Positions 6,001 through 9,000 of a stretch of 13,312 nt of DNA are shown piece by piece. The position numbers were made by a program. The stretch comes from a virus (taxonomy: Duplodnaviria; Heunggongvirae; Uroviricota; Caudoviricetes): the IMG/VR virus record IMGVR_UViG_2703718873_000005, one strand, 5' to 3'. Each line of letters opens with the position of its first letter. The first letter of the stretch is position 1.

Positions 6001-9000
6001 TCCCGGCGATATTCATCCCGGACAGGGATATCCGTTACCGGGAGAGGTGGCGCGTACGCCGGATGAGAATCAGGCAGGACGTGGTGGTCGTTTTACCACA
6101 ACCGGTGAGGTTAAGGGCCAGAGTTTCCAGAAAGGACAAGCTCCGGCACCGGAAAACGCCGCTGGTCGCCAGGGGGAAACACTCGAGGGTGAAATGGTTC
6201 GTCGTGGTCTGCCGTCACCGGATGCGCAGAACGCGACAGCACCGGTACGTGAAGGGCTACCGGCTCCTGACATTGCGCGTAATGTTCGTATGCCTCAGCC
6301 TGAATCACTTCCCCGCACTGTACGGGACTCACTGCCTGAGCTTGCACAGCAGGCAGAAGTACGCCGACAGGCCGGAGGAAATCGTGACATCCCGCAGCCT
6401 GAGACAATCGCACCTGAATCTGAAACAACTGTCTCTACTGACAGGGAAGCTACCGTGCGCGGAGGTGAAGTCAGGGGCAAAAAAATTGAAGACTTTGGCG
6501 AGGAAATTAAAGGGGCAGCCAAACACCGTTATGCACAGCTTGCTGAAACACTGGGTAAAACGCTGGAAGACAGGGATTATGCCACGCAGCCGCTGAGCAA
6601 ACTGTTCCCGAAACCGGACTACGCAAAACTGGCGAACGAAGGTGCCGATGCTGATACCCTGGCAATGATAGCGCTGTATCGTAGCGATATTCCGGCGAAG
6701 ACGAAACACAATACGGCAGGCTGGGGGGAGAGCATAAAAAAAGTACGACACAGTGTATCGGAAATGCTGAACGGAACGGTCAGCGCGAAACGCCTCGCAG
6801 AATGGATGGAAGGCAGAATGCCCTCCCGTTACGCGGACACCTGGCAACTGTTACGCACTCTGCCACCCTCACAGATGGACAGAGCTTCTGCTTATCGGGT
6901 GGTATCGGGTGTGTATCAGGCGGCAGGAGGGAAGCGTTACGATCCGCCACAGAAACTTTATTCACTGCGCAATAAGGACAATAAGGGGAGTAACCTCTTT
7001 TTCTCGGAAAGCAGGGATGAATTACTGGCAAAGGCGAAAGTCTGGTTTGCAGAGCAGGAGGAAAAATCACAGGCGAAAGGTGATGAAAAAACAGCACCGT
7101 CACCGGATGACAAAATCCGCTTTGACGTTTACCGGAATACCCGCAGTGGCGATATTTTTATCGCTTACGGTAAAAACAAAATGCGGGTGAGAGGTGGCTT
7201 TAAGTCAGCCAGTGATGCGCGTAAGTACATTGATTCACATCGTGATGAGCTTGTTCGTCATGTGAAGGAGATGCGGGAGATTTCGCGTGAGGAGCAGCGC
7301 AACGCCACCAACCGCGACCGTACCGGACCAGAACGCCGCAAAGGGAATGTTTCACCGGAGCAGTTCAGTGATGCGTTTGGTTTCCGTGGTGTGCAGTTTG
7401 GTAATTATGTGGAAGGTCCGCGTCGTCAGGCTGATTTGAACCGGGCTTATGACTCGCTGCATGACCTTGCGGAAGTACTGAATGTACCGACAAAAGCGCT
7501 TTCCCTGAACGGTCGTCTTGGCCTGGCATTTGGTGCCCGTGGTAAGGGTAAGGCGGCAGCACACTATGAGCCGGGTGAGGCGGCAATCAACCTGACAAAA
7601 GGTAACGGACCGGGTGCGCTGGCGCACGAATGGTTCCATTCTCTGGATAATTATTTTGGTCGTTATGACGTTTCCACTGACGGGAAAATTACGTCAGGTG
7701 GCGACTTTATGACGGAAGCACAGCGTGCCAGGCGCGTATTTAAAGACGGCAGGTATGTTGATGCTGAATATCCGGTACGTCAGGAGGTTTACGACGCTTT
7801 TAAAGGTGTGATTCAGGCCATTAAAAACAGTGACATGCCGCGTCGTTCAGCGCTTCTCGATGAGGTGCGCTCAAAACCGTACTGGTCAACGGATGTTGAA
7901 ATGGCGGCACGTGCCTTTGAGCGTTATGTTCAGGATAAGGCGCGTATGGCTGGCGTGGAGAATGATTATCTGGTCAATATCCGTAAGGCACCTGAGCACA
8001 ACACAGATAACACCTACGCTTATCCGACGAATGCGGAACTGGATGGCGGTATTCGTGAGGCATTCGATCACCTGTTCCGCACCCTGAAAACCCGTGAGAC
8101 GGACAAGGGCGTTGCGTTTTATTCCCGTAAGGGCGTTACCCGCACACCTGAAGGTAATCTCATTTCGGATGTTAACCGCAGTGCGGAAGCCAAAGGCAGC
8201 CCGGTCCCGCAGGTTGAAGCGGTTGCCCGTGGCGTGATGAGTGGCATTAAGGACAGTGACCTGAAGGTCCGTGTGGTGAAGTCACAGAAAGAGGCTGAAG
8301 CGCTGGCGGGGGAATCATTCGACGGTTACGGCAGGGTGCACGCGTTCTATCGTCCGGATAAACGTGAAATTGTCCTGGTGGCGGATAACATCCCTGACGG
8401 GCGGACCGTTCGCGAGAAGTTGCGTCACGAGATAATTCACCATGCTATGGAGCATGTTGTCACGCCAGCGGAATATCAGACGATTATTAAGACCGTGCTG
8501 AAAACCCGTGACAGTGATAACGCCACCATCCGTGAAGCCTGGCGTAAGGTTGATGCGTCTTATGGTAAGGAATCACCGGAAGTGCAGGCGGGTGAATTTC
8601 TGGCACATATGGCAGAGAAGCAGCCTAATAAATTTGTGGCGGCATGGGAGCGTGTTGTTGCCCTGGTCAAAGGGGTACTGCGTCGCACGGGGTTACTGAA
8701 GCCGACGGAACTGAACGATATCAGACTTGTTCGCGAGACCATCCGTACGTTAGGCCAGCGTGTGCGGGAAGGTTACACGCCGCGTGAGGATGGTGCTGGC
8801 GCATCGTCTCAGTACTCCCGTAGCGGTAAACCTGATCCGTTTAAAGTACCGGAGGGTGAGGGTGAGCGTTATCGTGAATGGTTGGGAAGAGCCATGCGCT
8901 CCAAACGTTCATCTGATATTCAGATTGAGCTAGGACGCACACCTCCTGTATTGCGTCATCTTGGTGCGCCGGACTTGCCGCTGGTTATTTCCCGCGACAC

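Follow-up and report, generated by a model that had tools for sequence, protein, structure and literature searches.

Polyvalent proteins of phages and conjugative elements are marked by hallmark domains that include LPD5, LPD1, MuF_C, and LPD38 (Iyer et al. 2017, PMC5512222). Multiple zincin domains in phage polyvalent proteins have been known since that survey, in which more than one metallopeptidase (MPTase) domain was found in 8% of the MPTase-containing polyvalent proteins, and self-processing and cleavage of host targets were already proposed as alternative roles for these domains. Also relevant is CLCA_X, the phage- and plasmid-borne sister family of the CLCA protease domain, which carries an HExxH...D motif and whose relationship to CLCA_N was shown by Lenart et al. 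in 2013 (PMC3650047). Here, we analyzed a 13,312-nucleotide stretch of viral DNA (the window; IMG/VR virus record IMGVR_UViG_2703718873_000005), most of which is taken up by a single giant gene of a short-tailed Shiga toxin (Stx) phage. These phages spread Shiga toxin genes among Escherichia coli, and their essential protein of ~2,800 residues is still poorly annotated. In this protein we find two predicted zincin MPTase domains, unrelated to each other and ~50 residues apart, one built around the motif HEWFH and the other around HEIIHH.

The giant polyvalent protein and its two motifs

The window matched 189 phage records at 95-98% nucleotide identity over its whole length. All 189 are Stx1- or Stx2-converting short-tailed phages of E. 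coli or Shigella, for example VT2-Sakai/Sp5 and the PA series, and this match identifies the window as late-region DNA from a short-tailed Stx phage of the 933W/Sp5/phi24B type. Its largest open reading frame (ORF) is as follows:

3737..12154, + strand: giant polyvalent-protein ORF (PHROG 616 over the full length; 95-98% identity to the 189 Stx-phage records)

By the ORF list and the translation of the window, this ORF is uninterrupted and has 2,805 codons from the ATG at 3737, from which all amino acid (aa) positions given here are counted. The true start is probably ATG 3776 (aa 14), which would leave the first 13 codons untranslated, because a GGAG lies seven bases 5′ of ATG 3776, whereas ATG 3737 has no Shine-Dalgarno sequence, and because PHROG 616, most database annotations, and the 2,793-aa versions begin at the equivalent of ATG 3776. 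PHROG 616 (function unknown) matches the ORF end to end, and the current labels in Stx-phage records are "hypothetical protein" or "LPD5 domain-containing protein." On sequence comparison, the ORF is the polyvalent protein of the short-tailed Stx phages, equivalent to Sp5 ORF80 (ECs1242) and phi24B gp47. As is typical of phage-type polyvalent proteins, it joins many unrelated domains, LPDs and two peptidase domains among them, in one polypeptide, and it is encoded among virion genes and packaged in the particle.

The original prediction, which was made from the DNA sequence alone, had placed two HExxH motifs about 800 nucleotides (nt) apart in one polypeptide. Both are indeed in the same frame of the giant ORF, and the coordinates proved exact: HEWFH is at nt 7625-7639 (aa 1297-1301) and HEIIHHAMEH at nt 8426-8455 (aa 1564-1573), with a measured spacing of 801 nt. 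The flanking peptides that it quoted are exact as well, including EMAARAFERYV (aa 1388-1398, nt 7898-7930). Given how much His and Glu the protein contains, 0.036 HExxH strings would be expected by chance, compared to the two that are present.

Two predicted zincin domains

Domain 1 and the elements within it that bear on its active site are as follows:

7319..8101, + strand: zincin MPTase domain 1, CLCA_X type, aa ~1195-1455
7562..7570, + strand: H1276-Y-E1278 (within AAAHYEP) in predicted strand 2, H in 60/61 and E in 61/61 homologues (model residues 226-229)
7625..7648, + strand: HEWFHSLD, aa 1297-1304, the HExxH of domain 1 plus an Asp three residues on (predicted helix 1295-1309)
7856..8095, + strand: LPD1, aa 1374-1453 (Pfam PF18796, E = 9.5e-24)
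7898..7921, + strand: E1388-MAARAF-E1395, helix with a candidate third metal ligand (predicted helix 1386-1404, predicted local distance difference test [pLDDT] score 94-98)

Several lines of evidence, from profile, alignment, and model, place the active site of a zincin domain of the CLCA_X type at HEWFH. First, the NCBIfam model CLCA_X (NF041907) matched aa 1195-1450 with an E value of 2.2e-44 over model positions 3-245 of 250. Second, an alignment of 61 domain-1 homologues (28-53% identity) shows that the key residues vary little or not at all: H1297, H1301, and D1304 are kept in 60/61, E1298 and W1299 in 61/61, and downstream E1388, R1392, and F1394 in 61/61 and E1395 in 58/61. H1276 (60/61) and E1278 (61/61) are additional conserved residues that are proposed, from the model, to face the active site. 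Third, an AlphaFold2 model of aa 1050-1460 (pLDDT 86.9, predicted template modeling score 0.78) has the canonical zincin order, namely, a helix (1227-1248), three strands (1262-65, 1275-78, and 1283-86), and the HExxH helix (1295-1309), followed by an insert and then the helix at 1386-1404 that carries E1388 and E1395. The domain therefore has HExxH on a conserved helix, an N-terminal helix with a three-stranded sheet, and likeness to solved zincins. The downstream Glu that had been suggested as the third ligand, in EMAARAFERYV, is E1388, and its invariance speaks for it; D1304, however, is equally conserved as a ligand candidate, and Lenart et al. (PMC3650047) proposed the equivalent Asp as a metal ligand.

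Searching with aa 1215-1460 gave 349 matches, many of them stand-alone proteins of ~335 aa with Pfam LPD5 plus LPD1, and most of the domain-1 homologues listed carry this pair. No Pfam peptidase model covered HEWFH, either in the full protein or in subsegments around each motif; the subsegments gave LPD1 plus subthreshold noise from Peptidase_M76 and DEK_C. Pfam LPD1 is, by these comparisons, the C-terminal, Glu-helix half of the CLCA_X peptidase and not an independent module, because a single model, CLCA_X, covers the two halves and none of the 61 homologues lacks either.

The corresponding elements of domain 2 are as follows:

8258..8776, + strand: zincin MPTase domain 2, HExxxH-type family, aa ~1508-1680
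8426..8443, + strand: HEIIHH, aa 1564-1569, domain 2 motif, which reads as HExxH via H1568 or as HExxxH via H1569
8588..8617, + strand: AGEFLAHMAE, aa 1618-1627, candidate third-ligand helix (E1620 invariant, E1627 94%; predicted helix 1614-1627)

HEIIHH is likewise assigned, from conservation and the predicted structure, as the active site of a second zincin domain unrelated to the first. A word-indexed search returned almost only near-identical E. coli fragments, and an exhaustive search was used instead. With aa 1495-1690 as the query, it gave 371 cluster representatives at E ≤ 1e-3, of which 92 were at E ≤ 1e-10. In an alignment of 144 segments (~23-80% identity), H1564 is kept in 99%, E1565 and the H1568 column in 100%, W1602 in 85%, Y1609 in 94%, E1620 in 100%, A1623 in 93%, and E1627 in 94%. 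The family motif is LRHE(V/I)LxH(H/Y)GL, that is, HExxxH, with a downstream EExxAxxAE helix that contains E1620. Of the 144 segments, 137 have the HExxxH spacing only, 6 fit both spacings, and 1 has lost the first His; HE(I/V/L)IHH occurs only in the window and its five nearest relatives. The HExxH reading of the second motif thus holds for the Stx clade, where the sequence fits it, but not for the family as a whole. In the AlphaFold2 model, the core at aa 1506-1629 has pLDDT values of 88-98 and runs as a strand, a helix, two strands (the strands being at aa 1510-14, 1536-39, and 1544-48), the motif helix (1555-1574), and three further helices, the last of which bears E1620 and E1627. This domain too has its motif helix after a small sheet, a downstream Glu helix, and likeness to solved zincins, so that the models around both motifs show the zincin topology that had been anticipated.

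Profile libraries were silent on domain 2. Pfam, NCBIfam, and PDB sequence models gave nothing that covers it, and Pfam gave nothing consistent on 35 of its homologues (a faint Peptidase_M76 in 6 of the 35). The resemblance to SprT/ImmA/IrrE-type peptidases in the original prediction holds insofar as domain 2 is a minimal zincin, but not at the level of family: SprT-like and Peptidase_M78 profiles had no match at E ≤ 10 with the window segment or at E ≤ 1 with the 35 members, and only M76 appeared, below its cutoff, at E values of 0.045-0.19. PDB sequence and profile searches with a 739-aa middle region and with the alignments of both domains had no relevant match (SurA and EF-hand-like hits were noise). 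Judged by these searches, domain 2 is a large family of at least 371 clusters that is absent from curated profile libraries. It plausibly corresponds to the clade with HExxxH that appears in Iyer et al. (PMC5512222), to which it is likened by motif alone.

Overall, we consider the fold and domain identity of both zincin domains very probable, and the earlier interpretation is supported. Both domains also appear, from their conserved residues, to be catalytically active. The alternative that one or both are dead, zincin-derived scaffolds that serve in binding or packaging, as the anthrax lethal factor N-terminal domain is, is improbable given that the canonical catalytic residues are kept at 98-100% in homologues down to 23-30% identity and that the first His is lost in only 1 of 144 domain-2 sequences, whereas inactive derivatives normally lose such residues.

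The two domains are not paralogues, because a profile-profile comparison of their alignments (hhalign) found no relation (probability, 1%); on the same value, a tandem-duplication origin was rejected. They do tend to travel together. Among the best 149 of the 371 domain-2 representatives, 26 have a CLCA_X domain, usually with LPD5, directly upstream of domain 2, with a spacer of ~40 residues in most of these 26 proteins. LPD5-peptidase 1-peptidase 2 is, by this count, a recurring cassette, and it is seen in giant proteins. The size and copy number of domain 2 were counted in the same 149 representatives. It was in a protein of at least 1,000 aa in 124 cases (median, 2,372 aa) and in a protein of 350 aa or fewer in 11, and two true full copies were present in one protein in 26, for example, P0144 and P0147. 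The double-copy proteins include the closest non-Stx relatives, which have HE(I/V/L)IHH too.

In most of the homologues examined, LPD5 directly precedes domain 1, and the pair seems to be a single unit. The same unit also occurs as solo LPD5 plus CLCA_X/LPD1 proteins of 333-334 aa in metagenomic phage contigs (L003, 8001-9005; L005, 8001-9002). These solo genes head long arrays of small unannotated genes that are divergent from the terminase and portal genes. This setting suggests that the solo form serves as an early or accessory gene.

In the whole protein, Pfam found four domains over the cutoff, namely LPD1 and the following three:

6926..7375, + strand: LPD5, aa 1064-1213 (Pfam PF18799, E = 6.5e-45)
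9023..9289, + strand: MuF_C, aa 1763-1851 (Pfam PF18819, E = 4.2e-20)
11198..11815, + strand: LPD38, aa 2488-2693, C-terminal module (Pfam PF18857, E = 7.8e-49)

MuF_C has the PBECR fold, a phage BECR-fold RNase-like module (PMC5512222, section 19), and is not a metallopeptidase. LPD38 is restricted to phage-type polyvalent proteins (PMC5512222, section 33); its tblastn matches were giant "DarB-like" proteins of Burkholderia and also proteins of Ralstonia and Vibrio phages. When the giant protein was scanned by hydrophobicity for membrane segments, one weak stretch only was seen, at aa 195-213. The linker between the two peptidase domains (aa ~1455-1508; window 8100-8260) appears to be a place where modules are shuffled, because in P0133, a homologue from Salmonella, an additional module of ~300 residues is inserted exactly between LPD1 and domain 2.

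Beyond the giant gene, the GC content, ~0.55 inside it, drops to 0.40 past the stop codon (window 12000-13312). The VT2-Sakai counterpart of this segment has small accessory genes, among them one that encodes a YgiW/YdeI-like OB-fold protein and, on the opposite strand, a MokW-like host-killing gene. The segment looks like a moron region of different origin.

Packaging of the protein and proposed roles of the peptidases

The giant gene adjoins genes of virion-associated proteins in the Stx-phage late region, and its product has been studied in two phages. In Sp5, ORF80 (2,793 aa) is essential; its deletion gave normal-looking heads and no tail-fiber antibody binding, and the authors, in 2016, guessed an ATPase role (PMC5155283). 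In phi24B, gp47 is abundant in purified virions but invisible in the cryo-electron microscopy map, and the authors propose that it acts as an internal protein for ejection (bioRxiv 10.64898/2026.04.10.717836). According to the proteome supplement of that preprint, gp47 peptides from virions span aa 133 to 2747. Two of them, GVQFGNYVEGPR inside domain 1 and EIVLVADNIPDGR directly before HEIIHH, mean that both motif regions are physically in the particle. The same data set includes gel slices ordered from high to low mass, in which the peak of the 724-aa (80-kDa) portal protein is in slice 5 and that of the 409-aa capsid protein is in slice 11. The gp47 spectral counts were 2188, 1686, 1187, and 1260 in slices 1 to 4, 663 to 374 in slices 5 to 9, and 177 or fewer thereafter. 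Since the counts are highest in slices 1 to 4, the bulk of gp47 appears to be very large in the particle and was probably not cut small before or during packaging.

The 421-aa ORF at 2441-3706, upstream of the giant gene, matched only PHROG 601 (function unknown). Its phi24B homologue, gp48, labeled "Transcription factor?", has 1634 virion spectra with a peak at the slice expected for its size (bioRxiv 10.64898/2026.04.10.717836). The product may be a second packaged protein encoded beside the giant one.

Our best explanation, to which we give a probability of about 50% when taken as a whole, including the division of labor between the domains, is as follows. First, the giant protein is packaged in the virion and would be ejected into the cell with the DNA, as the phi24B authors proposed. 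Second, the HEWFH helix of domain 1 would supply two metal-binding His residues and the catalytic Glu, and D1304 and/or E1388 (87 residues downstream, in the LPD1 helix) would complete the metal site. Third, domain 2 is a minimal zincin whose family has HExxxH plus the downstream Glu helix (E1620). Both domains would act as proteases once the giant protein leaves the capsid. Finally, domain 2 would, after ejection, cut the carrier into modules (LPD5-peptidase, the RNase-like MuF_C, and LPD38), and the LPD5-CLCA_X unit would be an effector protease that works in trans on a host or phage target. Domain 2 is the likelier polyprotein cutter because it is found again and again in giant proteins, often in two copies, which fits the processing role proposed by Iyer et al. 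The LPD5-CLCA_X unit is the likelier trans effector because it also exists as a stand-alone protein, which has no modules to release.

Some observations weigh against this explanation. The CLCA_X score of domain 1, 151.8 bits, is lower than the NCBI full-protein cutoff of 260 bits, a cutoff that serves to name whole proteins and is tuned to stand-alone proteins of ~250 aa. Foldseek comparison of the domain 1 model with the PDB gave nothing at E ≤ 0.001, the best match (E = 0.18) again being lethal factor. Two choices of metal ligand are ambiguous, that between D1304 and E1388 for the third ligand of domain 1 and that between H1568 and H1569 for the second His of domain 2. An appreciable gp47 signal is present at ~50-80 kDa in the virion preparation, which had been stored for six months, and some cleavage of gp47 inside the particle may have taken place. 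Lastly, we infer the division of labor solely from domain architecture.

Among the alternatives, the one that fares best is that both domains are mainly trans-acting effectors, ejected with the DNA to cleave host defense, envelope, or regulatory proteins, and that the giant protein needs no cutting. We hold this less likely than our best explanation. A host-directed role has likewise been proposed for the MPTase domain of ArdC-type anti-restriction proteins. The short domain-2 proteins, however, may partly be gene fragments (one that was checked sat on a 1.3-kb contig), and for CLCA_N, a related domain of eukaryotes, cleavage of its own precursor has been proposed (PMC10669480). The alternative is also compatible with self-processing and differs from it in emphasis only.

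In another alternative, the peptidase cuts the peptide cross-links of peptidoglycan and so lets the ejected protein build a periplasmic channel. Podophages must breach the wall; to our knowledge, however, the wall-cutting peptidases of phages are of the LAS/M23/M15 or NlpC/P60 types and not HExxH zincins. No lysozyme, transglycosylase, or wall-peptidase model in Pfam or NCBIfam matched the giant protein, the structural neighbors of the domains are protein-cleaving enzymes, and the solo homologues are found among early or accessory genes and not among lysis or tail genes. The phi24B preprint did give this role to a "metallopeptidase domain" of gp47 (bioRxiv 10.64898/2026.04.10.717836), but it pinned the activity on MuF_C, a BECR-fold RNase-like module and no peptidase (PMC5512222). 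These points make a wall-cutting role, if anything, a shade less probable than the dead scaffolds discussed above. The last alternative, that both HExxH strings are chance occurrences of a short pattern in a very long protein (2,805 aa), is refuted by their conservation in distant homologues, where the first motif is kept in 60-61 of 61 sequences and the second at 99-100% over 144, and is further opposed by the 0.036 expected and by the models, in which both motifs fall on the active-site helix of a predicted zincin fold.

A bolder and doubtful proposal is that domain 2, representing a large zincin family with no Pfam or NCBIfam model or solved structure, would have its HExxxH revert to or coexist with the canonical spacing in the Stx lineage, and that together with LPD5-CLCA_X it would form a two-protease cassette that is delivered into E. 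coli with the phage DNA, dismantles its 300-kDa carrier, and cleaves host defense or envelope proteins. Proteolysis carried by the virion would then exist in a group of phages of medical importance that has been reported to lack any protease. The predicted active sites at E1298 and E1565 provide handles on whether the ejected giant is cut and whether it attacks host proteins.

Comparison with known systems

Domain 1 of the giant protein was already catalogued in 2013. Table S2 of Lenart et al. lists residues 1195-1467 of the 2,806-aa gi|315274348, which correspond to it; that entry is 100% identical to the protein of Stx2 converting bacteriophage I and also has matches to the 933W and VT2-Sa proteins (PMC3650047). 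As in the CLCA_X family, domain 1 has HExxH followed by a conserved Asp and lies in a long phage protein, as most members do. It differs in spacing: the published motif is HExxHxxxD, compared to HExxHxxD in domain 1 and in 60 of the 61 homologues. The Lenart paper makes no mention of the second peptidase domain, of LPD5 as a fixed partner, or of the Glu helix that is invariant farther downstream.

The polyvalent proteins of Iyer et al. (PMC5512222) are similar in several ways. The giant protein has LPD5, LPD1, MuF_C, and LPD38, and domain 1 has two features of one of their phage clades (section 8), a conserved His that ends strand 2 and an Asp three residues past HExxH. Domain 2 is similar to their HExxxH clade by motif, 137 of its 144 family segments having HExxxH only, and HEIIHH of the window fits both spacings. 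The main text of that survey does not mention Stx phages, and the Pfam models derived from it (LPD1 and MPTase-PolyVal) mark neither active site in the giant protein. Within this known framework, the present results refine annotation and introduce no new principle. Four points are added: LPD1 lies within the CLCA_X peptidase; domain 2 is part of a large family absent from the curated libraries; this family is of the HExxxH type, with a dual-reading HE(I/V/L)IHH in the Stx lineage; and the phi24B preprint places the peptidase activity in the wrong domain (MuF_C), the predicted peptidase domains lying upstream of it and being missed by Pfam.

Solved zincins are more distant. The gluzincins anthrax lethal factor and Pro-Pro endopeptidase (M34, ATLF-like) and MtfA (M90) differ from the two domains in sequence (7-15% identity and no profile match) and in the insert between the two helices, the domain 2 family uses HExxxH, and the Foldseek matches are not significant. 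SprT/Spartan/Wss1, ImmA/IrrE (M78), and the C-terminal metalloprotease of ArdC scored below the lethal factor/Pro-Pro endopeptidase type, and the giant protein differs from these minimal zincins, which belong to DNA-associated and mobile-element proteins, in having no evident DNA-binding partner domain.

In size and location, the giant protein is comparable to the phage N4 virion RNA polymerase (vRNAP) and to P1 DarB/DdrB, which are also very large capsid-packaged proteins. Both N4 vRNAP and the Dar proteins of P1 are delivered into the host together with the DNA, whereas such delivery of gp47 is a proposal only. The Stx-phage giant differs from them in that it has no RNA polymerase, methylase, or helicase domain by Pfam. 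Kinship with P1 DdrB (HELGH at aa 872), DarB, and DarA was considered and rejected, as they are unrelated to either domain profile. N4 vRNAP and DdrB also bear a zincin MPTase (PMC5512222). In their processing the two diverge: N4 vRNAP is packaged uncut, as the bulk of gp47 seems to be, whereas P1 DdrB is cleaved before packaging. Finally, the "DarB-like" giants of Burkholderia phages share LPD38 with the Stx-phage giant.

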